From Ruminococcus albus 7 = DSM 20455 (GTDB lineage Bacteria; Bacillota; Clostridia; Oscillospirales; Ruminococcaceae), in NCBI RefSeq assembly GCF_000179635.2, contig NC_014833.1, positions 1,260,001-1,292,000 on the forward strand: 32,000 bases of DNA. Direction: 5' to 3'. Shown here piece after piece: positions 2,139-22,768 of this stretch. Position numbers and translations under genes: made by a program. Below the pieces are notes generated by a model, which had not been told where the DNA came from, did not search any database, and was given only the letters and a program-made list of their open reading frames with translations. The stretch's first letter is position 1. Every line of letters starts with the position of its first letter.

Positions 2139-2167
2139 TTGAAAAAACGTAGCTGTTGTGCTATAAT
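2139..2167 (+). promoter_or_regulatory. sigma-A type promoter of the SNF2/DUF4391/mod/res operon
   Basis: -35 TTGAAA (2139-2144), a 17-nt spacer ending in the TGTGc -16 motif, and -10 TATAAT (2162-2167). Confidence 0.6.
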
Positions 2168-2264
2168 AGTATTGATTATACAGAATTTATGAATTATGGT
2201 TAATACTCATATTCTATCTGTTATATTCTGGAAATAATTCCTTAGTCCGAATGAGGTGATGTAG

Positions 2265-5200
2265 GTGGAAATCTTCAACAATACTACGAAAACAGTGGGT
2301 GATGATCTTAAATCTTGCATTAATGCAGGTAATCGCATTGCAATTGCTGCGGCCTGTTTTTCTATCTATGCCTATCAGGAGCTTTGCGAACAACTTGAAT
2401 CATGTGAAGAACTTCGTTTTATTTTTACGTCTCCGACATTCATTGCAGAGAAAACTAAGTCCGAACGTCGGGAATTCTATATTCCACGTCTTGGTAGAGA
2501 ACGAAGCCTTTATGGTACAGAGTTTGAAGTGCGACTTCGTAATGAACTCAAACAAAAGGCAGTCGCAAAAGAGTGTGCTGACTGGATGCGCCGTAAGGTA
2601 AAATTTAAGTCAAATACAACTCGTGAAGGGATGAACAATCTTTTACTTGTCGAGGGTGATTCAGACATTTTTACTTATATGCCTATGAACACCTTTACAA
2701 CTGTTGATCTTGGATGCGAACGAGGAAATAATCTTACGAATATGGTAACTCGACTTGAAAATCCTGCAAGTTCAGAGTTTTTGCGAATGTTTGATTCTAT
2801 ATGGAATGATGCCGACAAGCTGAAAGACGTAACGGAAGATGTAATCGAAATGATTTCGACTGTCTATCAGGAGAATGCACCTGAGCTTGTGTACTTTATG
2901 ACACTGTATAATATCTTCAGCGAATTTCTTGATGATATCTCAGAGGACGTTTTGCCAAATGAAGCAACAGGATTCAAAGATAGTGTAATATGGAACAAGC
3001 TGTTTCATTTTCAGAAAGATGCTACTCTTGCGATCATCAATAAATTAGAGCAGTTTAACGGCTGTATTCTTGCAGATAGCGTTGGACTTGGAAAGACCTT
3101 TACAGCATTAGCGGTTATCAAGTATTATGAGGGACGTAATAAAAATGTCTTAGTACTATGTCCTAAAAAGTTGTCTGAAAACTGGATGACCTATCGAGGC
3201 AACCTTATCAACAATCCATTAGCGGCAGACCGCCTCCGTTATGACATTCTTTATCATACAGATTTGTCTCGTGACAGCGGTGACACCGTTATTGGATTAC
3301 CGATTGATCGGATAAACTGGGGCAATTATGATCTTGTTGTGATTGATGAGAGCCATAATTTCCGAAATGGTAATGGTACTAACAGCAAGGGCGGCGAAAA
3401 AGAAAATCGTTATATGCGCCTTATGAATCGTGTTATTAAGCCTGGCGTTAAAACGAAAGTTCTGATGCTCTCTGCAACTCCTGTCAATAACCGTTTCTAT
3501 GATTTACGCAATCAATTAGCCTTGGCTTATGAAGGAGAACCAGAAGAATTCAGCGATAAACTCAAGACAAAATCGGATATTGATACAATTTTTCGTCAAG
3601 CGCAAACGGTATATAATGCGTGGTGCAAACTTCCGGAAGAACAGCGTACAACTGCTACACTGTTATCAAGGCTGGACTTTGACTTCTTTGAGGTACTCGA
3701 TAGTGTTACAATAGCGCGCTCAAGGAAACATATCCAAACATATTATGATGTTTCAGATATTGGCACATTTCCAAAACGTAACAAGCCTATTACTTTACGT
3801 CCGAAACTTACAAATAAGCCAAAAGCAATTAACTACAAAGAAGTTTATGAGTTGCTTTCAAATTTGCAGTTGACGATCTATACGCCTACAATTTACATAC
3901 AGCCAAGTAAAATATCAAAATATCTTGATGAGGATGAAACTGAAAATTTCCGAAAAGGGCGAGAACTCGGCATCCAACGGTTGATGAAAATCAACCTGCT
4001 GAAACGAATGGAAAGTTCAGTTCATTCGTTCTTGCTTACTGTACGTCGCATTCACGACTTTTTACACGATACATCAGAGATTATTTCAAAATTTATGAAA
4101 ACTGGAATAGGTAACCTCGATGAAATGCGTGATCTTTTAAGTACAACTAATGATTTTGACTTTGATGACCAAAATACCGACTTCTTTAGTGTTGGTAAGA
4201 AAGTAAAGATTGACATTCGTGATATGGATTATATTAGTTGGAAGCGCGATATAGATAATGATATTGAAAATCTCCAACTACTGATTTTTATGGTTGAAGA
4301 TATCACTCCGGAGTATGATTACAAGTTGAATGAGCTGTTTCGAGTGATAAAAGAGAAGATAGCTCACCCCATCAACCCCGAAAACAAGAAAATAATAATA
4401 TTTACAGCATTTGCGGATACTGCTGAGTACTTGTATGATAATGTGAGCAAAATGGCATTATCTGAACTTGGACTGCATACAGCACTTGTGACAGGTTCTG
4501 TTGACGGGAAAACTACGATTTCAAAATTCAAAGCAGATATGAACCACGTTCTGACCTGCTTCTCTCCTCTATCCAAAGATAAAGCCGTACTGTATCCAAA
4601 TGAATCGGCGGAAATAGATATACTCATAGCAACTGACTGTATCTCTGAAGGTCAGAACTTGCAGGACTGCGATTATTGCATTAACTATGACATTCATTGG
4701 AATCCAGTACGTATTATTCAACGTTTTGGACGTATCGACCGAATTGGTAGTCGTAATGCCGTGATACAACTTGTGAATTTTTGGCCCGATCTTGACCTTG
4801 ATGAATATATCAATTTGAAATCCCGTGTGGAAACACGAATGCGTATTTCTGTTATGACGTCTACTGGTGATGATGACCTAATAAATCAGGAGGAAAAGGG
4901 CGATCTCGAATACCGACGCAATCAGCTTAAGCGCTTGCAGGAAGAAGTTGTTGACCTTGAAGATATGACAAATGGCATTTCTATTATGGATTTAGGACTT
5001 AATGAATTCAGAATGGATCTGCTTGCATATATGAAAGAACATGAAGATATCGATCACACGCCGTTCGGCATCCATGCTGTTGTAAAAGGCGAAAAACCGG
5101 GCGTTATATTCGTGATGAAAAATGTCAATGAGCATATAAACATTGAGAATCAGAACCGCCTGCACCCATTTTATATGGTATATGTCAGCATGGACGGCGA

Positions 5201-5495
5201 GGTGATCACAAATCACTTGCAGCCCAAAGATACGCTTGATATCATGAGACATCTTGCAAAAGGAAAGACACAGCCAGACAAGCACCTCTGTGATAAATTC
5301 AATAAAGCAACAAACAACGGTAAAAACATGGCTAAAATCTCGCAGTTACTGGAGGATTCAATCATGTCTATCATTGATGCAAAGGACGAGAGCGACATTG
5401 ACAGCTTCTTCGGAGGAGGACAGACCACATTCCTTTCAGGAGGATTCTCAGGACTGGATGATTTCGAGCTGATATGTTTCATGGTGGTGATTTGA
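2265..5495 (+). CDS. SNF2-family (SF2) helicase/ATPase, 1076 aa, with N- and C-terminal extensions of unknown function
   Basis: GTG start after RBS gaggtg. Helicase motif I is ILADSVGLGKTFTA, motif II is VVIDESHNFRN and motif VI is QRFGRIDRIGS. About 250 aa N-terminal and 300 aa C-terminal have no motif I recognise. Confidence 0.9.
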   Translation: MEIFNNTTKTVGDDLKSCINAGNRIAIAAACFSIYAYQELCEQLESCEELRFIFTSPTFIAEKTKSERREFYIPRLGRERSLYGTEFEVRLRNELKQKAVAKECADWMRRKVKFKSNTTREGMNNLLLVEGDSDIFTYMPMNTFTTVDLGCERGNNLTNMVTRLENPASSEFLRMFDSIWNDADKLKDVTEDVIEMISTVYQENAPELVYFMTLYNIFSEFLDDISEDVLPNEATGFKDSVIWNKLFHFQKDATLAIINKLEQFNGCILADSVGLGKTFTALAVIKYYEGRNKNVLVLCPKKLSENWMTYRGNLINNPLAADRLRYDILYHTDLSRDSGDTVIGLPIDRINWGNYDLVVIDESHNFRNGNGTNSKGGEKENRYMRLMNRVIKPGVKTKVLMLSATPVNNRFYDLRNQLALAYEGEPEEFSDKLKTKSDIDTIFRQAQTVYNAWCKLPEEQRTTATLLSRLDFDFFEVLDSVTIARSRKHIQTYYDVSDIGTFPKRNKPITLRPKLTNKPKAINYKEVYELLSNLQLTIYTPTIYIQPSKISKYLDEDETENFRKGRELGIQRLMKINLLKRMESSVHSFLLTVRRIHDFLHDTSEIISKFMKTGIGNLDEMRDLLSTTNDFDFDDQNTDFFSVGKKVKIDIRDMDYISWKRDIDNDIENLQLLIFMVEDITPEYDYKLNELFRVIKEKIAHPINPENKKIIIFTAFADTAEYLYDNVSKMALSELGLHTALVTGSVDGKTTISKFKADMNHVLTCFSPLSKDKAVLYPNESAEIDILIATDCISEGQNLQDCDYCINYDIHWNPVRIIQRFGRIDRIGSRNAVIQLVNFWPDLDLDEYINLKSRVETRMRISVMTSTGDDDLINQEEKGDLEYRRNQLKRLQEEVVDLEDMTNGISIMDLGLNEFRMDLLAYMKEHEDIDHTPFGIHAVVKGEKPGVIFVMKNVNEHINIENQNRLHPFYMVYVSMDGEVITNHLQPKDTLDIMRHLAKGKTQPDKHLCDKFNKATNNGKNMAKISQLLEDSIMSIIDAKDESDIDSFFGGGQTTFLSGGFSGLDDFELICFMVVI

Positions 5496-5496
5496 T

Positions 5497-6129
5497 ATGA
5501 TTGAGTTTCCAAGTGCAACGGTGGTAGGCAGAAGACTTCCGAAGGAGGCGTTCTATAAGCACTTGCCACTGACCAAGCCATTGAAAGACAAATTTGTGTC
5601 TGATGTTGAACGTATTGTAGTAGAAAACAGCTTGACCAAAAGTAATCTGAATTTGAACGATGATGCGGAAATCAACGAAATTATGCTGTTATCTATCACG
5701 TTAAAAAAACAGGAATTTGACGGCAAGGTAGTTGAAGCAATCGCAAGGCAGAATCAGCACAAACTGATTTTTCTTCTAATTTATGAAAATAGTTATCAGC
5801 TTGCATTGTATCATAGCAAGTTATACCGCACTTCATGGATGCAGAAAGATCAGGTTTCCCTGAGACCGCAGGGCTTTTCGCTTGACGAGATATGGAACTG
5901 CTTTATTGAGCAAATAGCACTGTTTGCTGAACAGGCTGAAAATATCCGAACACTCTCTATTGAGGAACGCCTGGCTTTACAAGAGAAAATACAGAAACTC
6001 GAAAAGCAGATACAGAAAACTGAAACTGCTGCCTGGAAAGAACAGCAGCCTAAGAAACAATTTGCATTATACACGAAATTACGTGAATATCAAAAACAAT
6101 TGGAGGAACTGAAACATGGACAAGCTTAA
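5497..6129 (+). CDS. DUF4391-like protein with C-terminal coiled coil
   Basis: The ATG lies 1 nt after the SNF2 stop (tgatATG). The N-terminal pattern FPSATVVGRRLPKEAFYKH ... INEIMLLSITLK ... KLIFLLIY matches my recollection of DUF4391. The C-terminus is a Q/E/K-rich coiled coil. The family assignment is from memory only. Confidence 0.65.
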   Translation: MIEFPSATVVGRRLPKEAFYKHLPLTKPLKDKFVSDVERIVVENSLTKSNLNLNDDAEINEIMLLSITLKKQEFDGKVVEAIARQNQHKLIFLLIYENSYQLALYHSKLYRTSWMQKDQVSLRPQGFSLDEIWNCFIEQIALFAEQAENIRTLSIEERLALQEKIQKLEKQIQKTETAAWKEQQPKKQFALYTKLREYQKQLEELKHGQA

Positions 6130-8167
6130 AATGCACACGCCCGATCTGGCGGATGAGAACTTTAAAAAGCTGGCATCGCTGTTCCCGAACGCTGTTACCG
6201 AAACAATTACAGGCTACGATGCAGATGGTAATGCAATCGTTGAACGTGCCATTGATGCAGATGTATTGCGACAGGAAATTTCTGCAACCGTCGTTGAGGG
6301 TGCGCAGGAGCGTTATCAGTTCACATGGCCTGATAAAAAGAAATCCATAGTGCTTGCCAATCAGCCGATTGCAAAGACGCTTCGCCTTGACCGTAAGAAG
6401 TCCGTTGGCAGAGACGGCACACCGGGTAGTATTGATACCGAGAACATCTATATCGAGGGTGACAACCTTGATGCTTTGAAGCTCTTGCAGGAAACATACC
6501 TTGGCAAGGTGAAGATGATTTATATTGATCCGCCCTACAACACCGGAAATGATTTTATCTATGAGGATGATTTTTCGCTGGATACAGGCGAGTATCTGGG
6601 AAACAGTGGGCAGTTTGACGAAGAAGGAAACCGCCTTGTACAGAACACGGAAAGCAACGGGCGGTTTCATACAGACTGGCTTAATATGATGTACCCGCGT
6701 CTAAGAATTGCTAAGGATTTACTGTCTGAGGACGGGGCGATTTTTATATCAATAGACGAACATGAAGTCGGTAATTTAAGAAAAATGTGTGATGAAGTGT
6801 TCGGCGGTGCTTGCTTTGTTTCTGATGTTGCATGGCAGCGCACTTATTCAATGAGAAATGATGTAAAAGGTATCGCTGCTGAAATTGAACATGTTTTAGT
6901 TTATGGGAAACAACCTGCCTGGCAACCCAAAAAACTCGCAAGAACAGAAAAAATGGATTCAAAATATAAAAATCCAGATAATGACCCTCGTGGCGCATGG
7001 AGAAATATCGTAGCGAGCGCTCCCAATGCAGCAACGCATCAAGGCATGGTATATGCAATTCAAAATCCTATTACGGGAGAATATGCATATCCGCCTCAAG
7101 GAAGGTGCTGGAGCTTAGGTCAAGATTTTATGCTTAATGCGATGAATCAGTGGTGCGATTATGAATTAAAAAACATTCACGATGATGAAAGAAGAGCAGA
7201 AGTTTGCGGCGTAAGTACGGCTGAAGTAAGAAAAGATGTTCTTGCAATTGTGTTGAAAGGCGCTTTAGCTGAGGCAAAACAAAAAGCTTTAGCAAAGTAT
7301 CAAGGAGTTTTACCCGAGTTTTTCTTTTCCAAAAAAGGTGAAGGAACTTTAAGCAGAAAAGCCTATATAAACGAAGTTGCTGGAAGACCTGTAACGAATT
7401 TCTGGTCATTTGAAGAAACTGGACATACTGATGAAGCATCCAGATTACTGAAAGAATTATTTGATGGTACAACAGTTTTTGATACGCCAAAACCTGTTCG
7501 CCTTTTAGACAGAATCATAACCATTGCGACAAATACCGAAGATGTAGTGCTAGATTTCTTCTCTGGATCGGGAACTACTGCGGAATCACTTTTGAAAATG
7601 AATATGTCTGATAGCGGAAATAGAAAGTATATTCTAGTTCAAATTAATGAAGAAACGCGGTTGCCTAGTTATGCTAATCTCTGTGAAATCGGAGAAGAAC
7701 GAATCCGCCGTGCCGGAAAGAAGATCAAGGAAGAAAATCCGCTTACAACCGCAGACCTTGATATTGGGTTCCGTGTGTTCAAGGTTGACAGCAGTAACAT
7801 GGAGGACGTGTATTATCGCCCTGCTGACCTGAAACAAGACCAGATCATGATGAACATAGATAACGTCAAGGCAGACAGAACGCCGGAAGATCTGCTTTTT
7901 CAGTCGATGCTCGACCTCGGCATTCTGCTTTCCTCTGAAATCGAAGAAACGGAATTTGCCGGAAAGAAGGTCTTTTCCGTTGCAGGTGGCTACCTGATTG
8001 CCTGCTTTGATTTTGAGATCACTGAGGAAACTGTTACGGAGATTGCAAAGAAAAAGCCTTTCTATGCTGTTTTCCGTGATGCAGGCTATGCAAATGACAG
8101 CGTTGCCACGAACTTTGAGCAGATTTTTGAAACCTATAGCCCGAAAACCAAGAGGAAGGTACTGTAA
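6116..8167 (+). CDS. mod: Type III restriction-modification DNA methyltransferase (Mod, beta-class N6-adenine/N4-cytosine)
   Basis: The start overlaps the upstream gene by 14 nt. Motif IV IYIDPPYNTGNDF precedes motif I VVLDFFSGSGTTAE, the beta-class permutation typical of Type III Mod. A variable middle region is the putative target-recognition domain. Confidence 0.92.
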   Translation: MDKLKMHTPDLADENFKKLASLFPNAVTETITGYDADGNAIVERAIDADVLRQEISATVVEGAQERYQFTWPDKKKSIVLANQPIAKTLRLDRKKSVGRDGTPGSIDTENIYIEGDNLDALKLLQETYLGKVKMIYIDPPYNTGNDFIYEDDFSLDTGEYLGNSGQFDEEGNRLVQNTESNGRFHTDWLNMMYPRLRIAKDLLSEDGAIFISIDEHEVGNLRKMCDEVFGGACFVSDVAWQRTYSMRNDVKGIAAEIEHVLVYGKQPAWQPKKLARTEKMDSKYKNPDNDPRGAWRNIVASAPNAATHQGMVYAIQNPITGEYAYPPQGRCWSLGQDFMLNAMNQWCDYELKNIHDDERRAEVCGVSTAEVRKDVLAIVLKGALAEAKQKALAKYQGVLPEFFFSKKGEGTLSRKAYINEVAGRPVTNFWSFEETGHTDEASRLLKELFDGTTVFDTPKPVRLLDRIITIATNTEDVVLDFFSGSGTTAESLLKMNMSDSGNRKYILVQINEETRLPSYANLCEIGEERIRRAGKKIKEENPLTTADLDIGFRVFKVDSSNMEDVYYRPADLKQDQIMMNIDNVKADRTPEDLLFQSMLDLGILLSSEIEETEFAGKKVFSVAGGYLIACFDFEITEETVTEIAKKKPFYAVFRDAGYANDSVATNFEQIFETYSPKTKRKVL

Positions 8168-11100
8168 TGGCTGACATGAAATTCAAATTTACCATACAGC
8201 CCTATCAGACAGAGGCTGTAGAAAGCGTCGTGAACGTATTTGCAGGTCAGTCTTTTAATGACCGTTTCACATATCGCAGAGATGTGGAAGTAGAACGCAC
8301 TCTTCTGAATGCACAGAAGTCTGACGAAGAATTGTATATGGGCTTCGCAAATGCCCGTGTGCAACTTGATGGGACTCAGCTCCTTGCAAATATCCGAAAA
8401 ATACAGGGCAGAAACAATATCAAGCTGTCCGATTCTCTGACAACCAAGCTCGGCTGCTGTTCTCTTGACGTAGAAATGGAAACAGGAACTGGAAAGACCT
8501 ATGTTTACATCAAAACGATGTTTGAACTGAACAAGCGTTACGGCTGGAGCAAATTCATTGTCGTTGTACCGAGCATTGCAATCCGCGAGGGAGTCCGCAA
8601 GAGCTTTGACGTAATGCAGGAGCATTTCCATGAGCAATACGGCAAAAAGGCGCGGTTCTTCGTTTACGATTCCAAAAACCTTTCCGAGATCGACGATTTC
8701 AGCCAAAGTGCAGATATTCATGTAATGATCATCAACACGCAGGCGTTCAATTCTTCGTTTAATGAGGCAAAGAATGTCGAGGGACGCAAGGGAGATGCCG
8801 CTGCAAGAATCATATTCTCCAAGCGTGATGATTTTAGTTCTCGCAGACCTATTGATGTGATTGCTGCGAATAACCCCATTATCATTATGGACGAACCTCA
8901 AAAAATGGGCGGTGACAAAACGCAGGCTGCACTGAAACAGTTCAAGCCGTTGTTTGTTTTGAATTATTCTGCCACCCATAAACAGCACCATGAGCTTGTC
9001 TATGTGCTGGATGCACTCGATGCCTATAATAAGCATTTGGTTAAGCGTATTGAAGTTAAGGGCTTTGATATTAAAAATCTGCGTGGTACTGACAGTTATC
9101 TGTACCTGTCAAGTATCATCATTTCTCCGAAAAAGCCCCCGATGGCTCGTATTGAATTTGAAATAGGCTATGATAAATCCATTAACAGAGAAACTCGTTT
9201 GCTGGGTGTGGACGATGATCTGTATTCCCTCTCAAAAAATATGAATCAATACCGTGGATATCGTATCAGCGAGATTGATCCTGTCCGAGGTATTGTGACT
9301 TTTACAAACGGTGAGATCATTCATTCAGGTGAAGTGCAGGGTGATGTTTCGGAATCTGATTTACGGCGTGTTCAGATCAGAGAAACGATACGCTCTCATT
9401 TTGAAAAGGAAAAAGAGCTTTTTGATAAGGGCATTAAATGCCTGTCTTTGTTCTTCATAGATGAGGTAGCAAAGTACCGCTGTTATGATGAAGACGGCAA
9501 TGAGGTCAATTCTGAATATGGTGAGATTTTTGAGCAGGAATATACCGACATACTGAATGAATATCTCACGCTGTTTGATACGCCATATGAGAAGTATCTT
9601 CGTTCTATTGAAGTTCATCAGACTCATGCCGGATATTTCAGTATTGATAAAAAGGGACGTAAGATAGATAGCTCTCTCAAGCGCGGCACTGATGAAAGTG
9701 ATGATATTTCTGCATATGATCTTATCTTGAAGGATAAGGAACGGTTACTCTCGTTCAATACGCCTGTTCGTTTTATTTTCTCACATTCCGCTCTCCGTGA
9801 AGGTTGGGATAACCCGAACGTTTTTCAGATTTGTACGCTGAAGCATGGCGGTAGTTCTCCTACGCAAAAGCGTCAGGAAGTCGGCAGAGGTCTACGCCTC
9901 TGCGTTAATCAAAACGGTGACCGAATGGACAGCGATACACTTGGGGATCTTGTGCAGCAGATCAATCAACTGACAGTTATCGCATCTGACGGTTACAGCG
10001 AATTTGTTGCTGATTTGCAGCGAGGTATCCGTGAAGATCTGTATGATCGCCCGACAAAGGCATCCGCAGAGTATTTCACCGGAAAGACACTTGTTTTGAA
10101 CGGACAGGATATTACAATTACCGAAAAACAAGGAAAGGATATCTATCGCTATCTTATCAAAAATGATTATATTGACGATGAAGATCATATCACCGATCAA
10201 TATCTTACTGATCTTGCCAATAGAGTTCTTGCATCGTTGCCGGAAAGCTGTATTGAAATCACTGAAGGGGTTCATGCTCTTGTGCAAAGCATCTATGATG
10301 AACACGCCCTTGATGACATGATTCGCAATGGTAACAGTACAACAATTCAGGAGAACGCACTGAATGATAATTTCTATAAAAAGGAATTTCAAACACTCTG
10401 GAATTATATCAACCATAAGTATGCCTACACTGTCGAATTCGACAGCGAGGAATTGATTAAAAAGGCTATTGCTTACCTTGACGAAAAAATGTTTGTTGCT
10501 AAACTTCAATATACAGTAACAACAGGTAAACAGGAAGATAAACTCAATAATGAAACGATAAAAACTGGCGCAGGCTTCTCTACTGAAAAAAGTAAGACCT
10601 ATACATTAGATAGAACTGAAGGCAGTTCTATCCCCTATGATCTTATTGGAGAAATTGCAGCCGGTGTAAAACTTACTCGACGTTCAACAGCAAGAATTCT
10701 GGCTGGTATAAAGCCTACTACATATGCGTATTATTGTAATAATCCAGAAGAGTTTATTTCAAAGGCAATTCGTTTGATTTTAGAGCAGAAAGCAACGATG
10801 ATTGTAGAGCATATTTCTTATAATCAAACTGATGGAACATATGATAGTGCTATATTCACTGCTGAAAAAAATAATGATTTTTCTAAGGCGTATAGAGCGC
10901 AAAAGCATATTCAGGATTATGTTTTTACAGACGGATATGCTAAAGACGGTCAAAGCGTTGAACGAAAATTTGTCGAAGACATTGATAAAGCTGATGAAGT
11001 TTGTGTTTACGCAAAACTTCCAAAGGGCTTTTCTATTCCTACACCTGTTGGAAACTATTCTCCTGACTGGGCAATTGCATTCCATGTAGGTATGGTGAAA

Positions 11101-11277
11101 CATATTTTCTTTATTGCTGAAACCAAGGGTACTATGGAATCACTGAATCTAAAACGCATAGAGCAAGCTAAAATTGATTGTGCAAAAAAGCTTTTCGCTC
11201 AGCTGTCAAAAGCAGATGTTGTATATCATGAAGTTGATAATTATCAGCATCTACTTGATAAAATAAATGAACTATAA
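8167..11277 (+). CDS. res: Type III restriction enzyme Res subunit (SF2 helicase plus PD-(D/E)xK nuclease)
   Basis: taATGg overlap with the mod stop. Motifs seen are METGTGKTYVY (Walker A), IIMDEPQKM (DEAD-like) and SHSALREGWDNPNVF (motif VI, typical of Res). The C-terminal nuclease motif is SPDWAIAF...FFIAETKG. Confidence 0.92.
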   Translation: MADMKFKFTIQPYQTEAVESVVNVFAGQSFNDRFTYRRDVEVERTLLNAQKSDEELYMGFANARVQLDGTQLLANIRKIQGRNNIKLSDSLTTKLGCCSLDVEMETGTGKTYVYIKTMFELNKRYGWSKFIVVVPSIAIREGVRKSFDVMQEHFHEQYGKKARFFVYDSKNLSEIDDFSQSADIHVMIINTQAFNSSFNEAKNVEGRKGDAAARIIFSKRDDFSSRRPIDVIAANNPIIIMDEPQKMGGDKTQAALKQFKPLFVLNYSATHKQHHELVYVLDALDAYNKHLVKRIEVKGFDIKNLRGTDSYLYLSSIIISPKKPPMARIEFEIGYDKSINRETRLLGVDDDLYSLSKNMNQYRGYRISEIDPVRGIVTFTNGEIIHSGEVQGDVSESDLRRVQIRETIRSHFEKEKELFDKGIKCLSLFFIDEVAKYRCYDEDGNEVNSEYGEIFEQEYTDILNEYLTLFDTPYEKYLRSIEVHQTHAGYFSIDKKGRKIDSSLKRGTDESDDISAYDLILKDKERLLSFNTPVRFIFSHSALREGWDNPNVFQICTLKHGGSSPTQKRQEVGRGLRLCVNQNGDRMDSDTLGDLVQQINQLTVIASDGYSEFVADLQRGIREDLYDRPTKASAEYFTGKTLVLNGQDITITEKQGKDIYRYLIKNDYIDDEDHITDQYLTDLANRVLASLPESCIEITEGVHALVQSIYDEHALDDMIRNGNSTTIQENALNDNFYKKEFQTLWNYINHKYAYTVEFDSEELIKKAIAYLDEKMFVAKLQYTVTTGKQEDKLNNETIKTGAGFSTEKSKTYTLDRTEGSSIPYDLIGEIAAGVKLTRRSTARILAGIKPTTYAYYCNNPEEFISKAIRLILEQKATMIVEHISYNQTDGTYDSAIFTAEKNNDFSKAYRAQKHIQDYVFTDGYAKDGQSVERKFVEDIDKADEVCVYAKLPKGFSIPTPVGNYSPDWAIAFHVGMVKHIFFIAETKGTMESLNLKRIEQAKIDCAKKLFAQLSKADVVYHEVDNYQHLLDKINEL

Positions 11278-11302
11278 AACTATGTGATTGAATAAATATA
11301 CG

Positions 11303-11334
11303 GGCTGTGGTTTGTGTGAACCGCAGCCTTTTTT
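11303..11334 (+). terminator. rho-independent terminator of the four-gene operon
   Basis: 10-bp stem ggctgtggtt / aaccgcagcc (one G-U pair), loop tgtgtg, then TTTTTT (11329-11334). Confidence 0.85.
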
Positions 11335-11535
11335 AGTATCAGAATGTTCCCACTCTATACCCCTGTCACCATTTAGCTCAATCAAAATGACACAAAACTA
11401 CTCCTCGTATAGCTCAGCGGCAGGAAAGTTGGCGCTCACAGTTGTTGTATATCTCATTAATCATTGTAAACCGCCTTCTAGTTTTAGGTTGAATATAATG
11501 TAAAACCAACCGCCAGAAAAAAACTATTTCCGAGA

Positions 11536-11659
11536 TATTACTACTTCGGCAATTAAACAATTGGCTCGATTTTACAAGGATTCGCAAATAGTACGCTATT
11601 ACACGTTTTTAAAAGATTGAGCTTGCGCCGGTCAAATTATATAATTGCCGAAGTAATAA
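11536..11659. repeat. 19-bp inverted repeat pair (1 mismatch) separated by 86 bp
   Basis: attactacttcggcaatta (11536-11554) versus the reverse complement of taattgccgaagtaataat (11641-11659). It lies in the intergenic gap between the AT-richer R-M operon and the GC-richer backbone. Confidence 0.5.
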
Positions 11660-11714
11660 TGTGTTGCTTACGACACCAATCACTATAATAACATGCACAT
11701 CAGTTGTTCAGCAT

Positions 11715-12689
11715 TTACATATCTGAATACTTGTCCGAAACCTTATTCAGTTCCTCGGCGAACCCCTTCCTGATGTCCTTCGGCGAGACTATTTCCAATC
11801 CGTCACCATAGCGCATCACCCACAGATAGAACTGCCTGTTTATTCCGCAGCTTACGCGGACTATTGCGTACTCGGGATCATCAAAATCCTCGCGAGAACT
11901 GACGGTGTCCCCAAGCTGCTCGATCATTTCATCAAGAAGATAGCGCCTGATCTTGAAGGTGACGATTTCGTATCTTTCCGGCGGGAATACATCGACTACA
12001 AAGCCCTGCGGTTTTTCGTCCGCGGGGGGCTTGACTTTGCTGACCTCGCCGCCTTTGATGTTCTTCATGCGGTCAATGCGGTATGTGCGGAACTGCCCTG
12101 TTTCCTCGTTAAAGCACCGAAGATAGAACCTCTCATTCATATAAATAACCTTGACAGGCAGCATATTTCGGCGTTTGTCGTAGTATATCACCTGCTGGTG
12201 TGTGTCGAATTTCCCATAGCTGAAATTGATCCTGCGTTTTTCGGAGATCAGCTTGTGTATCGTATCAAGGTTTCCGAGAAGGTCACGAGGTACTCTGCCC
12301 GCCTCGTTCAGCTCGATACGGCTGATGAGCTGCCTTATCTCCGCTTCGGAGCACATACTTTCAAACTTTTTTATCAGCTCCTGCTTCTGTCTTGCGGAGA
12401 GATACTTATTGATAGAAACAGAGTCAACGAGAAAGCGCAGTTCACCCACCGTGAAGCTCTTGTTCGTCAGATGATAGTATGTCGTGTTGTGAGCACCGAT
12501 AGTTTTGGTTATATGATAACCCGCAGTTTCAAGCCGCTCTATATCACGCCGGACGGTCAGCGCGGACACATCATACATACCTGCACTGTTTGCAAGGTGA
12601 TCTCTGATATTTCTGATCGTTACTCCATGCTCCTCGTCCGTTGCCCGGGTGAGGTAATTCAGAATATGTATTATCCGCTCGTGGTCCAT
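11715..12689 (-). CDS. WYL-domain transcriptional regulator (wHTH-WYL-WCX architecture)
   Basis: N-terminal winged HTH (IIHILNYL...LTVRRDIERLETAGYHI). WYL core is LPVKVIYMNERFYLRCFNEETGQFRTYRIDRMKNI. The C-terminal extension ends in GDGLEIVSPKDIR. RBS is gggagg. Confidence 0.85.
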   Translation of the reverse strand: MDHERIIHILNYLTRATDEEHGVTIRNIRDHLANSAGMYDVSALTVRRDIERLETAGYHITKTIGAHNTTYYHLTNKSFTVGELRFLVDSVSINKYLSARQKQELIKKFESMCSEAEIRQLISRIELNEAGRVPRDLLGNLDTIHKLISEKRRINFSYGKFDTHQQVIYYDKRRNMLPVKVIYMNERFYLRCFNEETGQFRTYRIDRMKNIKGGEVSKVKPPADEKPQGFVVDVFPPERYEIVTFKIRRYLLDEMIEQLGDTVSSREDFDDPEYAIVRVSCGINRQFYLWVMRYGDGLEIVSPKDIRKGFAEELNKVSDKYSDM

Positions 12690-16731: not shown

Positions 16732-16963
16732 GGTGCTGAATGATAATCTTAACAATATCATCGGTCAGCAGAACAAGATGTTTGATAAACTATTGGCGAA
16801 CAGCAAAAACGCAGTTTCGGAGATGGAAACTGCGTTGGAAAAGAGTGCTGAAAAGTTGAACAAAGCAAGTCATGCGGCGGGACTTATTGGTTTGTGGTAC
16901 AGTCTTGCGCCCGTCGCGGTCATCGTGCAGACGGTCATTCTGCTGTGGCAGCATTTTCACTGA
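16460..16963 (+). CDS. hypothetical coiled-coil protein with C-terminal transmembrane helix
   Basis: RBS aaagggga precedes the ATG. Composition is coiled-coil like (Q/E/K/L). The C-terminus LIGLWYSLAPVAVIVQTVILLW is hydrophobic. It lies in the +1 frame relative to the relaxase tail. Confidence 0.55.
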   Translation: MSLQRNAENTPQQELSGLWENVMKLKAEERQTAEDKYQTALLLATVDKMCTVLTDFMKDTQTELRKMNENQLRLLDIQEQYRQSVRKDAAKVLNDNLNNIIGQQNKMFDKLLANSKNAVSEMETALEKSAEKLNKASHAAGLIGLWYSLAPVAVIVQTVILLWQHFH

Positions 16964-19250
16964 GCGCAAGGTATGATGGTAGGTTTGTTATTCCCGCACG
17001 ATTGAAATACTTGACCGCAAGTGCAGCTTTTTCGCGGAGGTCGTTATCAGGAAGAACATCGCGGTAAATCCTGAACGCACGAATAAAATACTGCTCGGCG
17101 GTTTGAATACCGCTTAACTGAGACGTAATGCCGGCTATGTCGAAAAGGAGGTCGGCGTAGTCGGAGGTCGTCTCGGAGTTGGTCGCTTTTACGAAATCGG
17201 CGCACTTTTGGAGCGCGGTTATCGCTCGGCGGGCTTCTCCTGTTTCCGCGAGAAGTCGGGCATAATTGCGCGACATGATTATCACATCGTGGGTCGGAGC
17301 GTTCACCTCCGCGATTATCTGCATAGCATTCTCCATACTCGGCTTCGCGAGGTCGATCTTGCCGTCCGCCTGGTAGAGATAGCCGAGGTTCATGTGGAGA
17401 TTGGCGGCGAGCAAGGGATTTTCCGTCGGGTCGCACATATTAATAGCGCGCTTTTCAAGGTCGATGGCTTTCTTGTAATTGCCGTTCAGCAGACCTTCGC
17501 AGGAGGCTTGGTTATTGAGAAGTAATGCGCGGTCATTTTGTGTAGCAAATGTATCATCTGAAAGCAGATCGGTCATATTGGAAAGGAGCTTGTTCATGCC
17601 GCTTGCATAACGGTACTTTTCCATGTAGGAAAAGCAATCCTCGATGAACAGCAGATAATCTGATGTGTTACATATTTTGATTTTATCCGAGATATTCTCC
17701 ACAGTACCGAACAGCGCAGGATAATATGAAATATCCATTCCATGCTGCAAGCAGATTCGGTGTATGCTGTCAAGCAGAGCGCGGCAATTATCGGTGTCGG
17801 GATTTAGGTCGGAAATGACTATCTCCTGCACAAGCGGGTGCAGAGTGATCTTGTCCGTTTCAAGGTTCTGTATGAAGCCTATCTCGATGAGATCATTTAT
17901 GGTATCCATAGTATCCAGCCCGAACAGTTTTGCGAAAAGACGGGCTCTTATTCCGGCGGTAGGGATAAATGCGGCGGAGCGCATGACAGCCTGCATTTCT
18001 TCGTTCAAGGCAAACAGCGAGAAAAGCGTCTGAATGTGGGCGTGGTAGGTCGCTTTCTTGGTACGACCGTCTTTGTTGATAGTTATCTTGTCGTTGGCTT
18101 CGGGCGCGGCGGAGCTTTCGGAGAGTTTTACAAGTATCTCGTCAGGTTCAAGGATACCTGTCTGCAAGAGTCTTGCGGCGAGCTCTACTGAAAGCGTGTG
18201 ACGGTGTACGGTCTCGATTATGTTTTCGACAGTAGAACGATTATTGTTGACTTCGGTATAATAATGTCCTGCGAGTGATACCAAACTTTCGAGGTCGGAT
18301 ATTTCGGAAAGTTCATAAGTATATCCTACCTCAAAATGACTGCGCGTGGTGAAAATGACTTTACAGCCGTATTTCATCAACACATCGAGCTGCGGTTCGT
18401 TCGCGGCGGTGGTATTAAAATTGTCGATAATCAGCAGCGTGTCGGGCTTGAGGCTGCGCAGAAAGCGGTTGTGCTTTTTGAAACGAGTGGTATTATCGTC
18501 GGTCGGGAGATCGTCGGCGAAGTCCATGTCCTCGATGAGCGTTTGCAGGCTGCCGGGGTATGTGAAGTAGAGAATGTTGGTGTAGTACTTTTTGTGGGTC
18601 TTCGCGTAGGCTTTGGCGAATTCGCTTTTGCCTATGCCCGCGAGACCCGTGACGAAGATCTTGCTGTGCTTTTCAAACAGAGTGTGCAGTTCGGATATTT
18701 CATTATCGCGCCCGCAGAAATGCTTGCAGGGATTTGGTACAGAGCCTGACATAATGAGGTCGGCGGCAGCGGGTGAAAGGGTGCCGCTTGTAATCAGTTT
18801 TGGATCACGTTTTTGAAATTTGCGCTCCATGCCGAAAAGCATTACTGCGGAAATGAAGTCTGCCGCGTCGGTAGAATTCCGCGGAGGATAAAGCTCCGTG
18901 AGGTCGGTTTTCTTTTGGTCGGACACGGAAATATCGTTCATCAGCAGATCGTATATTTCCTGCGCGGCTTTGTCAAGGTCAGTCATCAGAGGGAATATCT
19001 TTTCTTCAAGATCGGAGGCGAGGTATTCCGCATAACCGTCCTGCAAATAGAAGCGCGTTATTGTGGGACTTATGGGGTCTTTGCCCTTGAACCAGCGGTT
19101 GACTCTGCCCTGATCAAAATCGAAATCGTCATTCTCATTGGCGAACTCGTTGAACAGCTGAAACACAAGTTCGGTCTGGCTCAGGGCTTTTGCTTCGCTG
19201 ATGTAATCGGTTATGATGTTGATTATCGAGCAGAAATCGCAGCGGGTCAT
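16935..19250 (-). CDS. STAND NTPase (NB-ARC-like P-loop plus C-terminal TPR repeats), 771 aa
   Basis: RBS aggagg. Walker A is FVTGLAGIGKSEFAKAY and Walker B is DTLLIIDNFN. The C-terminus is TPR-like (LLAANLHMNLGYLYQADGKIDLAKPSMENAMQI). The ~185-aa N-terminal domain is unassigned and contains an XRE-HTH-like stretch, LSQTELVFQL...GRVNRWFKGK. Confidence 0.8.
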   Translation of the reverse strand: MTRCDFCSIINIITDYISEAKALSQTELVFQLFNEFANENDDFDFDQGRVNRWFKGKDPISPTITRFYLQDGYAEYLASDLEEKIFPLMTDLDKAAQEIYDLLMNDISVSDQKKTDLTELYPPRNSTDAADFISAVMLFGMERKFQKRDPKLITSGTLSPAAADLIMSGSVPNPCKHFCGRDNEISELHTLFEKHSKIFVTGLAGIGKSEFAKAYAKTHKKYYTNILYFTYPGSLQTLIEDMDFADDLPTDDNTTRFKKHNRFLRSLKPDTLLIIDNFNTTAANEPQLDVLMKYGCKVIFTTRSHFEVGYTYELSEISDLESLVSLAGHYYTEVNNNRSTVENIIETVHRHTLSVELAARLLQTGILEPDEILVKLSESSAAPEANDKITINKDGRTKKATYHAHIQTLFSLFALNEEMQAVMRSAAFIPTAGIRARLFAKLFGLDTMDTINDLIEIGFIQNLETDKITLHPLVQEIVISDLNPDTDNCRALLDSIHRICLQHGMDISYYPALFGTVENISDKIKICNTSDYLLFIEDCFSYMEKYRYASGMNKLLSNMTDLLSDDTFATQNDRALLLNNQASCEGLLNGNYKKAIDLEKRAINMCDPTENPLLAANLHMNLGYLYQADGKIDLAKPSMENAMQIIAEVNAPTHDVIIMSRNYARLLAETGEARRAITALQKCADFVKATNSETTSDYADLLFDIAGITSQLSGIQTAEQYFIRAFRIYRDVLPDNDLREKAALAVKYFNRAGITNLPSYLALSENAATAE

Positions 19251-19574: not shown

Positions 19575-19656
19575 AAATATAGTTGACATCGGGGCGCGTT
19601 TGGTGTATAATAATTACATCAGACGTGTCCTCTATGTTATGAAAGAGAGGTTTATC

Positions 19657-20904
19657 ATGGCAATAGAGAGACGCAAGGATAACAAGAAAAGAGTCCTGAA
19701 AGAGGGCGAATATCAGAGGTCAAACGGTTCGTTTGAATTCAAGTGGCGCGACAAGATGGGCAAACGTCATTCGGTGTATGCCAAGACACTCGATGAGCTT
19801 CGTGAGAAGGAGCTTGATGTACTGCGCGATACACTTGACGGTATAAACGCGGACGTGAAAAATCTCACGATAAATGATCTGTACAACAAGTGGAAAACGC
19901 TGAAAAAGGGCTTGAAGGACAACACCTTCTCCAACTACAAGTATTCCTATGAGCAGTTTGTGGAGCCGAAGTTCGGCAGGATAAAGCTGACCGATCTCAA
20001 GCGCACCGATGTGAGAGCGTTCTACAATTATCTCGCTGACGAGCGGCACATCAAGGTCAACAGTATCGACTGCATACATACTGTGCTGCATCAGGTTCTG
20101 GAGCTGGCTGTCGAGGACGATTATCTCAGATACAATCCCTCGGACAACGCCTTGAAAGAACTGAAACGTGCGCACAGCAGCGACTTTGACACAAGACGAG
20201 CGCTGACTCTTGAAGAACAGCAGATCTTCGAGAACTATCTCGCAGACTCGGCTAAATACGCGCACTGGCTGCCGATATTCACGGTAATGCTGTGGACTGG
20301 CATGAGAGTCGGAGAGCTTACGGGGCTTCGCTGGGAGGACGTGGATTTTGAGGAGAACACGATCAGCGTAAATCACACGCTTGTATATTTCAGCATGGGA
20401 AAGCAGAATGGCTGCACCTTTGCGGTGAATACTCCCAAGACCGAAGCAGGCAAGCGGGCGATACCCATGCTGCCGAAAGTGAGAGAAGCTCTTTTGAAAG
20501 AAAAGGCGTTTCAGGAGGAAGTCGGCATCACCTGTAAGGCGGAGGTTGACGGGTTCAGCAATTTCATTTTCGTAAACCGCTTCGGGAACGTTCAGCATCA
20601 GGGAACGCTCAACAAGGCGCTGAAAAGGATAATCCGTGACTGCAATTATGAGTTGCTCGACAATAGCGGCGGCAAGGAAGTCACTACCCTGCCGAATTTC
20701 AGCAACCATTCGCTGAGACACACCTTCACGACGAGAATGTGCGAGGCGGGCGTGAACATCAAGGCGATGCAGGATATTCTCGGGCACGCCGACGTTGAAA
20801 CTACTTTAGGGATTTACGCCGATGCGACAAAGGAACTGAAGTCGAAAGAGATGATCGGTTTCGAGGAGTATTTCAAGTCGCTGACCGATGAGGATGCCGA
20901 GTGA
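19657..20904 (+). CDS. int: tyrosine site-specific integrase with N-terminal arm-binding domain
   Basis: ATG at 19657 after RBS gagagg. Catalytic signature is TGMRVGELTGLRWEDVD (Arg), HSLRHTFTTR (H-x-x-R) and LGHADVETTLGIYAD (His, Tyr). The N-terminus KRVLKEGEYQRSNGSFEFKW resembles Tn916-type arm-binding domains. Confidence 0.92.
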   Translation: MAIERRKDNKKRVLKEGEYQRSNGSFEFKWRDKMGKRHSVYAKTLDELREKELDVLRDTLDGINADVKNLTINDLYNKWKTLKKGLKDNTFSNYKYSYEQFVEPKFGRIKLTDLKRTDVRAFYNYLADERHIKVNSIDCIHTVLHQVLELAVEDDYLRYNPSDNALKELKRAHSSDFDTRRALTLEEQQIFENYLADSAKYAHWLPIFTVMLWTGMRVGELTGLRWEDVDFEENTISVNHTLVYFSMGKQNGCTFAVNTPKTEAGKRAIPMLPKVREALLKEKAFQEEVGITCKAEVDGFSNFIFVNRFGNVQHQGTLNKALKRIIRDCNYELLDNSGGKEVTTLPNFSNHSLRHTFTTRMCEAGVNIKAMQDILGHADVETTLGIYADATKELKSKEMIGFEEYFKSLTDEDAE

Positions 20905-20908
20905 AAGC

Positions 20909-20941
20909 TTACGACCAACTTACGACCGTTTTACGACCAAC
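20909..20941 (+). repeat. arm-type integrase binding repeats (TTACGACC x3), right arm
   Basis: ttacgaccaac ttacgaccg tt ttacgaccaac. The first 20 nt are identical to 1919-1938. Confidence 0.55.
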
Positions 20942-21042: not shown

Positions 21043-21067
21043 TTCCCGACGATGAAGAGCATCGACT
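21043..21067 (+). repeat. attR core: displaced copy of the lysS 3-prime end
   Basis: Exact 25-bp copy of 1848-1872. It reads ttc ccg acg atg aag agc atc gac taa, which translates as FPTMKSID followed by a stop. Confidence 0.8.
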
Positions 21068-21176
21068 AAGAAAAGTGCGTATTTAGGCGGTTTAAGAGGT
21101 GCTGAAATTACATTTTTTCGCATCAAAACATCAAATTCGCATCAAATTGAAGATTATAAATAACAGTGTATAAATA

Positions 21177-21213: not shown

Positions 21214-22455
21214 TTATTCCTTTTCATCACCGCTATCGTTAAGATAACGATCAAATTCTTTGAACTCCCTCTGTTTCAAGTCCTTGGTGGCTTCAGCGTA
21301 GACGTTCATCGTGGTATTGAAATCAGCGTGACCTAATACGTCCTGAATGACTTTGATGTTAACTCCGGATTCGCACAGTCTGGTAGCGAAAGTGTGCCTG
21401 AGCGAATGACAGCTGAATCTTGGCAGTAATGTTACATTTGCCTTTCCCTTTGACTTGGCTATTATCTCTTCGTTGCAGTCACGAGTGATCCGACGTATAG
21501 CCTTATTCAGTGTACCCTGATTATGTACATTACCGAAACGATTGACAAACACAAAATTGGTGTAGCCGTCTATCGTGACAGTACATTCGATCTCGGCTTC
21601 ACGCTGATAGTGTTCTTCCTGTATAAAAGCCTCTTTTACACCGTTGAGGATAGGTATCGTTCTTACACCTGCCTTGGTCTTGGGCGTGTGAATGTTGAAA
21701 TAACATCCGTTTTCCTTATGTTTGTAATATACGAGTGTGTGGTTAATGCTGATAAATTCGCCGTCAAGATCAACGTCTTCCCAGCGTAAGCCTGTTATCT
21801 CGCCAACTCTCATGCCGGTATTTAGCATTATGTAGAAAATAGGATACCAGTGATGGTACTTCCCGTTTCTGGAAATGTAGTTCATAAAAATATCCTGTTC
21901 CTCGCGTGTCAGAGCACGTTTCTTTTCGGTATCAAAGTTACTAGCCTGCTTGAAATGTTTCAGCGCATTGTCAGAGGGGTTAGTTCTTAGATAATTGTCC
22001 TGTACTGCCAGATCAAGCACCTGATGCAGAATGTTTTGTATGACTTCGATTGTGTTCTCTTTTAGACCTCGCTCGTAAATAAGCCTATTGTAGAATGACA
22101 GTACATCGGAGTATCTGATGCCCTTAACCTTATATTTGCCAAAATCGTAACGAATAAAACTGTCATACATATACTTGTAATTCTGAAAGGTGTTGTCTTT
22201 AAGTCCTTTCTTCAAAGCAAACCATATGTCTGCGAGATTGTTGAGCAGTACACTGTCTGCATCGGGACGAATACCGTATGCATGACTGCTGACGATATCT
22301 TCCTCTTTCTGCCGAAGATCTTCCAGAGTCTTGGCATACTTGAAGCAGCGCTTGCCGTTTTTCATAATGTAATCGTAGCGATAAGTACCGTTAGCAAGTT
22401 CCTGCTCACCCTTTTTTAATACTCTTCCTTTGCTGTCTCTGCGTCTTTTAGCCAT
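21214..22455 (-). CDS. int: tyrosine site-specific integrase, paralog of the integrase at 19657-20904
   Basis: ATG at 22455 after RBS aaaggagg. Motifs are TGMRVGEITGLRWEDVD, HSLRHTFATR and LGHADFNTTMNVYAE. Collinear with the first integrase over its full length, with about half the residues identical by eye. Confidence 0.92.
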   Translation of the reverse strand: MAKRRRDSKGRVLKKGEQELANGTYRYDYIMKNGKRCFKYAKTLEDLRQKEEDIVSSHAYGIRPDADSVLLNNLADIWFALKKGLKDNTFQNYKYMYDSFIRYDFGKYKVKGIRYSDVLSFYNRLIYERGLKENTIEVIQNILHQVLDLAVQDNYLRTNPSDNALKHFKQASNFDTEKKRALTREEQDIFMNYISRNGKYHHWYPIFYIMLNTGMRVGEITGLRWEDVDLDGEFISINHTLVYYKHKENGCYFNIHTPKTKAGVRTIPILNGVKEAFIQEEHYQREAEIECTVTIDGYTNFVFVNRFGNVHNQGTLNKAIRRITRDCNEEIIAKSKGKANVTLLPRFSCHSLRHTFATRLCESGVNIKVIQDVLGHADFNTTMNVYAEATKDLKQREFKEFDRYLNDSGDEKE

Positions 22456-22519
22456 AAGAATTCCTCCTTTATAAATAACGGCGGACGCTAAACCTAACGT
22501 CCGCCGTATAGTCAATTTG

Positions 22520-22768
22520 CTAGATGGAATAGGCATTAGCAATAAATTCATCAAACGGCTTACGCTTGATGAGCCTTTTGTTGCCGATCCAAATCACAAA
22601 CTTGCAATTCTCGTCAGCGGTCAGCTCTCTGAGCTTGTTTTGCCCGATGTTGGAATACTCGGCAGCTTCCGCTATGGTAAGAGTACTCTTTTCCCAGATA
22701 GGGACTGTCTTGTTGTCCAACAGGTAGACGGTTTCGTTGCGTTCAGCAATGATTTCCTTAGTTCTCAT
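22520..22768 (-). CDS. xis: excisionase-type helix-turn-helix protein
   Basis: ATG at 22768 after RBS aaaggagg. The sequence PIWEKSTLTIAEAAEYSNIGQNKLRELTADENCKFVIWIGNKRLIKR is collinear with the protein at 19335-19574. Confidence 0.75.
   Translation of the reverse strand: MRTKEIIAERNETVYLLDNKTVPIWEKSTLTIAEAAEYSNIGQNKLRELTADENCKFVIWIGNKRLIKRKPFDEFIANAYSI

Follow-up and report, generated by a model that had tools for sequence, protein, structure and literature searches.

In textbooks, Type III restriction-modification enzymes consist of two subunits. A large branch of them is nevertheless accompanied by a second, highly conserved motor and an uncharacterized small protein. What might these two additional proteins contribute to a methyltransferase (Mod) and a helicase-nuclease (Res)? 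The question is raised by an operon at positions 2139–11334 of a 32,000-nt stretch of the Ruminococcus albus 7 genome (hereafter, the window, to which coordinates refer unless another locus is named), in which genes for an SNF2-family ATPase and a DUF4391 protein precede mod and res. Examination of the operon and its relatives revealed several new features: a degenerate PLD domain at the N terminus of the SNF2 protein, a DUF4391 fold without recognizable relatives, a strict gene order, swapping of the target recognition domain (TRD) in Mod only, and a one-way co-occurrence of the SNF2/DUF4391 pair with Mod-Res. Tentatively, and with somewhat less than even confidence, we propose that the SNF2/DUF4391 pair serves as a motor/adaptor module, independent of specificity, and boosts Type III restriction once Mod has found its site.

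Carriers of the system include gut and rumen Clostridia as well as plasmids of Escherichia coli, Listeria, Enterococcus, Acinetobacter, and Vibrio. Of the four genes, annotation tools recognize mod and res alone; the others stay labeled "helicase-related" and "DUF." A preliminary description of the window, made from the sequence without database searches, had known of no mechanism for the SNF2/DUF4391 pair; likewise, neither a mechanism nor any description of such an accessory pair was found in the literature searched. Once established, its function would assign a role to DUF4391, explain why SNF2 proteins have repeatedly joined methylation-based defenses (DISARM, ARMADA, and MANTIS-like), and show whether a remodeler can boost restriction or tame autoimmunity. 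Native E. coli plasmids carrying the system make the question directly testable.

Organization of the operon

The operon comprises the following features, all on the forward strand:

2139–2167, + strand: predicted sigma-70-type promoter-like site, TTGAAA-17-(TG)TATAAT, with an extended −10 TG and 11 of 12 matches
2265–5495, + strand: SNF2-family ATPase, 1,076 aa; GTG start, ribosome-binding site GAGGTG at 2253–2258; NCBI name "helicase-related protein"
5497–6129, + strand: DUF4391 protein (PF14335), 210 aa
6116–8167, + strand: Type III Mod, 683 aa; beta-class N6-adenine methyltransferase with a central TRD
8167–11277, + strand: Type III Res, 1,036 aa; SF2 ATPase with a C-terminal PD-(D/E)xK nuclease
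11302–11329, + strand: intrinsic-terminator-like hairpin and T-run; 12-bp stem with 6 G-C pairs, then TTTTTT; 25 nt past the Res stop codon

The open reading frames (ORFs) are tightly joined. The DUF4391 start lies 1 nt past the SNF2 stop (TGAtATG at 5493–5499), the Mod ATG at 6116 falls within the DUF4391 ORF to give a 14-nt overlap that ends with the TAA stop at 6127–6129, and the Mod/Res junction reads TAATG at 8165–8169. Each of the four starts is preceded by a purine-rich ribosome-binding site (e.g., GGAGG at 6102–6106). The promoter-like site occupies a 390-nt gap behind the lysS terminator (1970–2006) and is the top-scoring one in the 10.5 kb scanned. Promoter-like sites overall numbered 27, against 25.9 expected from shuffled sequence, so only its position and score make the site at 2139–2167 meaningful; with hits at chance level, internal promoters may also exist inside the operon. 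One promoter, four coupled ORFs, and one terminator had been read from the sequence initially, and re-reading returned the same ORF coordinates and junctions. The four domain assignments made at that stage all passed profile searches (SNF2-rel_dom/Helicase_C, DUF4391, N6_N4_Mtase, and ResIII).

Mod and Res form a Type III core

Judging from sequence, Mod and Res are a bona fide Type III pair, full-length homologs of EcoP15I that have kept all catalytic motifs searched. Mod matches Pfam N6_N4_Mtase and the PADLOC model MTase_III (E = 9e-211) and aligns with EcoP15I Mod (4zcf_A) at E = 6.7e-55. Its motifs follow the beta-class order, with DPPY138 (motif IV) ahead of FSGSG482 (motif I) and the TRD between them. 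Res matches ResIII and RE_endonuc (E = 2.6e-28), PADLOC REase_III (E = 2e-287), and, over its full length, NCBIfam PRK15483; it aligns with EcoP15I Res (4zcf_C) in two stretches (E = 1.4e-70) and carries GTGKT107, DEPQ242, QEVGRGLR570, and PD...ETK at 966–987.

Near-identical operons indicate which component sets specificity. Among the related loci L005, L006, and L008, DUF4391 is 100%, SNF2 99%, and Res 98% identical, while the central ~280 aa of Mod are only ~20% identical. Because only the center of Mod has been swapped, specificity would change by TRD replacement alone and the SNF2/DUF4391 pair would be sequence-independent. By this comparison, specificity appears to reside in Mod alone, as is characteristic of Type III systems. 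No simple-sequence repeat was found in mod, and a phase-variable mod was rejected on that ground.

Four unrelated loci have the mod ORF cut at an identical point just before the DPPY codons (L011 at ~11018, L031 at ~11048, L036 at ~5780, and L054 at ~11018). The point corresponds to nt ~6524–6527 of the window (Mod aa 135–138), and the DNA beyond it differs in each locus; that inserted in L031 encodes two large serine recombinases and a phage tail lysozyme. It looks as though different mobile elements or prophages integrate site-specifically into the codons of the Mod catalytic motif, which would silence both methylation and restriction.

The SNF2 protein carries a dead PLD domain

Three parts can be distinguished in the SNF2 protein: a degenerate PLD/HKD domain (aa 1–235), a bipartite SNF2 ATPase core (aa ~245–850) matching Pfam SNF2-rel_dom and Helicase_C, and a conserved C-terminal domain (aa ~850–1076) without an assigned fold. 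About 550 aa of N- and C-terminal sequence had initially been left unassigned; this still holds for the C-terminal domain, whereas the N terminus is now accounted for as a catalytically dead PLD domain. The best PADLOC match is model C3a139 "HKD+Snf2" (E = 3e-125, aa 170–1075). The SNF2 motifs GLGKT274, DESH361, SATP403, and QRFGRIDR819 are all present and are invariant in 24 of 24 orthologs (44–92% identity). SNF2 homologs are abundant, with at least 8,000 among the matches listed in one search.

Homology of the N terminus to PLDc_2-positive relatives is supported by profile alignment (hhalign probability 96%, E = 3e-9, 202 columns). Where the active-PLD relatives have HxK and GSSN(L/F)(T/S), the DUF4391-linked clade has G/P-M-N/Q and P-x-x-x-F-T, and the catalytic positions (HxK(x)4D...GSxN) are replaced in all 19 aligned SNF2 orthologs. 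The window protein has no His in aa 1–247, and its N terminus (aa 1–235) gave no match to Pfam PLDc_2 even at E = 10; together with the replaced HxK/GSxN residues, these observations rule out an active PLD nuclease. The dead domain is nonetheless under strong constraint, including a conserved ~45-aa insertion. An AlphaFold2 model of the SNF2 protein, built on an alignment of homologs at 77–92% identity, reached a predicted local distance difference test (pLDDT) score of 41 and was not used for fold searching.

The SNF2 protein thus appears to descend from PLD-SNF2 helicase-nucleases, with nuclease chemistry lost and ATPase motifs intact. Active-PLD relatives adjoin Type IIG/MmeI-like methyltransferases (Pelobacter pPRO1 and plasmids of Planktothrix and Haloquadratum), which suggests that partnering with a site-reading methyltransferase is ancestral to this PLD-SNF2 family.

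The DUF4391 protein has a well-defined fold without recognizable relatives

The small protein matches PF14335 over profile positions 2–232 of 232 (E = 2.5e-45; 155.6 bits against a cut-off of 29.9). An AlphaFold2 model built from 59 diverse homologs (pLDDT 95.1) predicts an alpha/beta domain (aa 1–142) followed by a two-helix hairpin (aa 155–207). The preliminary description of a 210-aa coiled-coil protein is therefore too simple. Across the 59 family members, K16 and Q184 are invariant and E182, W114, G126, and L69 nearly so; the model places E182 and Q184 at the tip of the helical hairpin. The family forms ~1,000 clusters at 50% identity, and diverse alignments contain no conserved stretch of 7–10 residues.

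Foldseek with this model returned nothing significant in the PDB (best E = 0.29) or BFVD (best E = 0.026), phmmer found no match among PDB sequences, and no PADLOC model matched DUF4391. A PD-(D/E)xK nuclease was considered and rejected: matches to resolvase and splicing-endonuclease folds were insignificant (E at least 0.29, TM score at most 0.26), and the family has no conserved acidic/Lys motif. A full-text literature search found no functional statement, with two irrelevant mentions of DUF4391 and none of PF14335. In one protein from the search for family representatives (P0252, 380 aa), DUF4391 is joined to an ASCH (PUA-like) domain. PUA-like domains are often readers of modified nucleic acids; the fusion could hint at function or could be cargo fused at the DUF4391/Mod junction.

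Conservation of the four-gene order

To place the operon in a broader context, one genome per species was scanned with six close DUF4391 sequences as queries, yielding 78 loci. This sample is biased toward DUF4391 relatives of at least 47% identity; distant members came from tblastn searches or annotation of plasmids and from a few contigs. The SNF2-DUF4391-Mod-Res order and strand were the same in every locus where DUF4391, Mod, and Res were all identified (54 of 54 loci). In four of these 54, SNF2 is absent or a stub, two lying at an upstream contig end (L060 and L077) and two being deletion derivatives (L081 and L084). Hosts belong to Bacillota, Verrucomicrobiota, Chloroflexota, Planctomycetota, Synergistota, and Actinomycetota; the groups named in locus titles, plus one relative at 26% identity, are Clostridia, Negativicutes, Bacilli, Akkermansiaceae, Chloroflexota, Thermoguttaceae, Synergistaceae, and Rhodococcus. 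Plasmids with the four-gene block, some of them proteobacterial, come from E. coli (IncFIB), Citrobacter, Acinetobacter sp. NEB149, Listeria, Bacillus cereus, Enterococcus faecium, and Vibrio vulnificus. On the E. coli plasmid pLAO18 (NZ_OP242248.1), the operon occupies 3154–12215. On the Listeria plasmid, a 185-aa "hypothetical" gene is a divergent DUF4391. In E. coli, the system is present in 10 of 5,426 complete genomes. A megablast of the operon against plasmids and phages gave no match. That the arrangement recurs in bacterial genomes had been suggested in the preliminary description, and the co-conservation check run here, across informative loci, plasmids, and several phyla, agrees.

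The proteins of the operon diverge at unequal rates. Across phyla, identity to the window is 52–58% for SNF2, 47–56% for Res, 40–52% for Mod, and 23–26% for DUF4391; the divergence of SNF2, DUF4391, and Res is tightly correlated (r = 0.97), and DUF4391 evolves ~1.9 times faster than SNF2. In 65 of 74 loci, the SNF2-DUF4391 junction measures between −8 and +2 nt, and the only insert seen there in related loci is an uncharacterized 636-nt gap in L058. In about half of the related operons, extra genes occupy the DUF4391/Mod or the Mod/Res junction (equivalent to ~6116–6129 and ~8165–8169 in the window), so the operon appears to be a docking site for other defense genes. The commonest insert between Mod and Res encodes a ~350-aa YhcG/DUF1016 PD-(D/E)xK protein. 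Others encode Fic, Schlafen-AlbA2/HATPase_c_4, DUF2971, PDDEXK_3, and DUF4365 proteins, AAA_15/21 ATPases, and an OLD-type ATPase with DUF2130, and the insert of L028 spans 6 kb, in which an Eco57I-type methyltransferase and a GHKL ATPase are encoded along with a receiver domain and an HNH nuclease. An IS1-family element (11299–12000) separates mod from res in Acinetobacter sp. NEB149 pMsp65 (L091), whose host strain comes from the R. J. Roberts collection.

Mod-Res pairs occur without SNF2 and DUF4391

The association runs in one direction. Among the loci examined, no case of SNF2-DUF4391 without Mod-Res was found; L031, an apparent case, turned out to have its mod gene divided by an inserted element. 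Related Mod-Res pairs (Res 33–60% identical) do stand alone, as on Clostridium taeniosporum pCt3 and a complete 14-kb Staphylococcus hominis plasmid, and also, with IS6 upstream, on Lactococcus cremoris pJM2E and, with IS630 upstream, on an Aeromonas plasmid. Two further loci are deletion derivatives. In L081, SNF2 residues 1–76 are joined to DUF4391 residues 131–200, followed by intact Mod and Res; in L084, only DUF4391 residues 167–196 are left, again with Mod and Res intact. The notion of Mod/Res "locked" into one operon with SNF2 and DUF4391 therefore holds one way only, in that the pair always accompanies Mod-Res while related Mod-Res also occur alone.

Given the stand-alone pairs, the deletion derivatives, and the closeness to EcoP15I, Mod-Res is probably a self-sufficient enzyme and SNF2/DUF4391 an accessory module that appears dispensable for keeping Mod-Res. 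A pair needed for methylation but not for restriction is excluded, since its loss would be lethal and yet losses exist.

Comparison with known systems

The closest formal parallel is MANTIS (formerly Gao_RL), which comprises the DUF499 ORC/Cdc6-type AAA+ protein MtsA, the DUF3870 protein MtsB, the methyltransferase MtsC, and the active PLD-SF2 protein MtsD (bioRxiv 10.64898/2026.09.23.753747). In that system, the second ATPase and the small co-regulator are needed for methylation, all four proteins are needed for restriction, deletion is non-toxic, and the PLD-SF2 protein acts downstream of site recognition by the methyltransferase (bioRxiv 10.64898/2026.09.23.753747). Both systems have four genes ordered as ATPase, small protein, N6-adenine methyltransferase, and helicase-nuclease, with two ATPases and a methyltransferase that sets the site. 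They also share a PLD-SF2 family protein, the window SNF2 matching PADLOC "HKD+Snf2" (C3a139). Unlike MANTIS, however, the window has a dead PLD, a Type III Res as its nuclease, DUF4391 as its small protein, and neither AAA+/DUF499 nor DUF3870. Identity with Gao_RL/MANTIS was rejected owing to the different gene set and the lack of an active PLD-SF2 effector. An early suggestion that the four-gene arrangement had been noted as restriction-like in defense-island surveys probably conflated it with Gao_RL.

The core resembles EcoP15I and EcoP1I in having mod upstream of res, a beta-class Mod with a central TRD, and a Res that combines an SF2 ATPase with PD-(D/E)xK, but two extra coupled genes, for the dead-PLD SNF2 and DUF4391, set the operon apart from canonical Type III systems. 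The window Res also belongs to a distinct clade, mostly annotated as "DEAD/DEAH box helicase family protein," with EcoP1-like plasmid Res proteins sharing only ~31% identity over 59% of its length. A lactococcal Type III system, Lcr007I (PMC12418389), is not assignable to this clade from the text of that report. The pairs of PLD-SNF2 and Type IIG/MmeI proteins share a homologous N-terminal PLD fold, SNF2 core, and linker and likewise have an adjoining methyltransferase gene, but they keep HxK and GSxN, score with PLDc_2, and have neither DUF4391 nor a Type III Mod-Res.

Class 1 DISARM and ARMADA II (DrmD/ArmA with DrmMI/ArmB) similarly place an SNF2-type ATPase beside an adenine methyltransferase in a methylation-based defense operon. 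The window SNF2 reaches only 138 bits against the NCBIfam DISARM_DrmD cut-off of 610, with the helicase core alone aligning, and none of the window ORFs scanned is DrmA, DrmB (DUF1998), or DrmC. ARMADA II additionally depends on a helicase-nuclease of the YprA type and on a UvrD-like protein (PMC13463889). Membership in DISARM or ARMADA was rejected on these grounds. Two plasmid loci look like hybrids of DISARM parts with the Type III clade of the window. On B. cereus pMRY14-0105_1 (L094, 1–12366), DrmA and DUF1998 (DrmB) lie directly upstream of SNF2-DUF4391-Mod-Res on the same strand; on a Cupriavidus plasmid (L101, 2338–10491), the order is HTH-DrmD-Mod-Res, without DUF4391. The Cupriavidus Mod-Res falls in the same broad clade as that of the window, and its DrmD (713 bits), directly upstream of Mod-Res, is an unrelated SNF2 protein. 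This neighborhood suggests a general synergy between motors and Type III enzymes, and from such comparisons SNF2 motors appear to have joined site-reading methyltransferases repeatedly.

Proposed role of the SNF2/DUF4391 pair

The anatomy, homologies, dead PLD domain, co-conservation, TRD swaps, and natural losses are computational findings; a physical complex, an order of action, and a benefit for restriction are what we infer. By homology to EcoP15I, Mod would recognize a short asymmetric site by means of its swappable TRD and methylate one strand, and Res would use ATP as a switch while its PD-(D/E)xK domain cuts unmethylated foreign DNA. DUF4391, co-translated with SNF2, would be a fast-evolving adaptor that docks the SNF2 motor onto site-bound Mod-Res, and the dead PLD domain would probably hold the motor as a dimer. 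ATP-driven translocation or remodeling by SNF2 would then favor productive encounters and cleavage, for instance where DNA is coated with protein or its sites are poorly oriented. As a result, restriction would be strengthened or broadened by a module that is sequence-independent and unneeded for host methylation.

A bolder version of this proposal, which we consider rather unlikely, is that dead-PLD SNF2 and DUF4391 make a diffusion-based Type III enzyme motor-driven, with translocation from the Mod-bound site relaxing the two-inverted-site rule. Canonical Type III enzymes hemimethylate an asymmetric site, their ATP-dependent cleavage needs two inversely oriented unmethylated sites, and T7 escapes EcoP15I by strand-biased loss of sites. 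If the motor-driven version were true, phages escaping in this manner would be restricted, and the system would define a mechanistic class of restriction enzyme that is new in having one nuclease served by two different motors, with DUF4391 proteins as a new family of motor-to-methyltransferase couplers.

Several points weigh against a restriction-boosting module and lead to its rivals. Assembly of SNF2 and DUF4391 with Mod and Res is itself something that we infer; stand-alone Mod-Res shows that the core is independent of the module, whose benefit may be conditional or unrelated to cleavage; and the defense genes that many relatives carry at the DUF4391/Mod or the Mod/Res junction show that tight coupling of the two halves is not obligatory. 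Moreover, a motor without a nuclease could equally strip enzymes from DNA, which would be protection rather than attack. Such a role in host protection or control, by analogy with the alleviation of Type I restriction, would have DUF4391-docked SNF2 strip or reset Mod-Res at unmethylated host sites, limiting self-restriction after replication or repair, a TRD swap, or entry into a naive cell. Carriage on mobile elements and plasmids, combined with TRD swaps, does create a recurrent establishment risk; the operon starts with SNF2 and DUF4391 and ends with Res; and SNF2 enzymes are protein-DNA remodelers, exemplified by RapA, whose type appears among the PDB matches. Canonical Type III enzymes already avoid self-cleavage through the site-orientation rule, however, and Res is tolerated without the module in several lineages, where deletion derivatives and stand-alone Mod-Res keep intact Res ORFs, so we regard host protection as unlikely. 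The rate of DUF4391 evolution also fits a target of phage inhibitors or a sensor. Accordingly, the pair might act as a guard or backup that monitors Mod-Res or incoming DNA and steps in if normal cleavage is blocked by phage anti-restriction proteins or by DNA modifications; in a variant, it might remove inhibitors or re-license Res. DUF4391 is the fastest-evolving part, as in an arms race, one member carries the ASCH fusion, and the operon is a hot spot for further defense cargo. We nevertheless judge a guard quite improbable, as Pfam, PADLOC, and Foldseek recognized no sensor or effector domain in the SNF2 protein or DUF4391, the single ASCH fusion may merely reflect cargo inserted at the DUF4391/Mod junction, and Type III inhibitors are not evidently common in relevant phages.

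The remaining alternatives disagree on how closely the two halves depend on each other. At one extreme, the operon could encode an obligate four-part machine resembling MANTIS or BREX, with SNF2 and DUF4391 as ATP-dependent loaders for Mod and Res and with Mod-Res alone inert. The requirements reported for MANTIS and its formally parallel gene order speak for this idea, and deletion derivatives would likewise be non-toxic. What makes it decidedly unlikely is that Mod and Res are close full-length homologs of EcoP15I, which is active as Mod2Res alone, and that Mod-Res pairs of the same clade, standing alone on small plasmids, have retained long intact ORFs, which argues for continued function; the ATPase, besides, is SNF2 rather than DUF499 AAA+, and the small protein is DUF4391 rather than DUF3870. 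At the other extreme, SNF2 and DUF4391 would form an independent two-gene defense system merely co-localized with Type III genes in defense islands. Defense genes do cluster, foreign ones often lie between DUF4391 and Mod, and the B. cereus block abuts DISARM DrmA and DrmB. Yet the pair was found without Mod-Res in none of the loci examined, it has no recognizable effector, its PLD being dead, and order and strand are invariant across phyla, with correlated gene divergence. An independent system is accordingly the least probable reading, and a very improbable one.

Genomic context in R. albus 7

Proteins of the operon are identical to R. albus 7 ADU21615 and ADU21617, and the window matches GCA_000621285.1. 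An integrative mobilizable element of ~19 kb sits at the 3′ end of lysS, and the operon forms its first block. Two pairs of direct repeats delimit the element, a 20-mer (1919–1938 and 20909–20928) and a 31-nt repeat (1848–1878 and 21043–21073), the latter being the duplicated lysS 3′ end. Its genes beyond the operon are those for a WYL regulator, an actin-like partition protein, NikA/MobC, a relaxase, a STAND-TPR NTPase, and a Tn916-type integrase (19600–20904). A second element follows in tandem, with an integrase (21214–22554) and Xis (22520–23029). The GC content is 0.403 in the operon, 0.471 in the rest of the mobile element, and 0.492 in lysS. The greater AT richness of the operon relative to the element had been noticed initially and taken as a sign of separately acquired cargo, a reasonable reading given the mobile-element setting.

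One neighboring gene is a possible regulator of the operon:

11715–12689, − strand: WYL/WCX-domain helix-turn-helix protein (Pfam WYL, WCX, and HTH_DeoR), convergent with the operon

Homologs of this protein are missing from most related loci, although the Citrobacter plasmid has a WYL gene immediately beside SNF2 and in the same direction. In 18 related loci, a 67-aa XRE-type helix-turn-helix gene lies directly upstream of SNF2, whereas the window has no XRE gene. A second WYL/WCX-domain helix-turn-helix protein is encoded elsewhere in the window (30817–31902, + strand). Within the same element as the operon, a 771-aa STAND-type NTPase with TPR repeats (AAA_16/nSTAND1 and TPR_12; 16935–19250, − strand) may be a second, Avs-like defense gene. 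Further downstream, the stretch at 25000–28600 has a GC content of 0.31–0.32 and contains a 429-aa ORF without a Pfam match and a 385-aa ORF weakly matching G2P (Phage_CRI), a replication protein of filamentous phages; it may represent another small integrated replicon.

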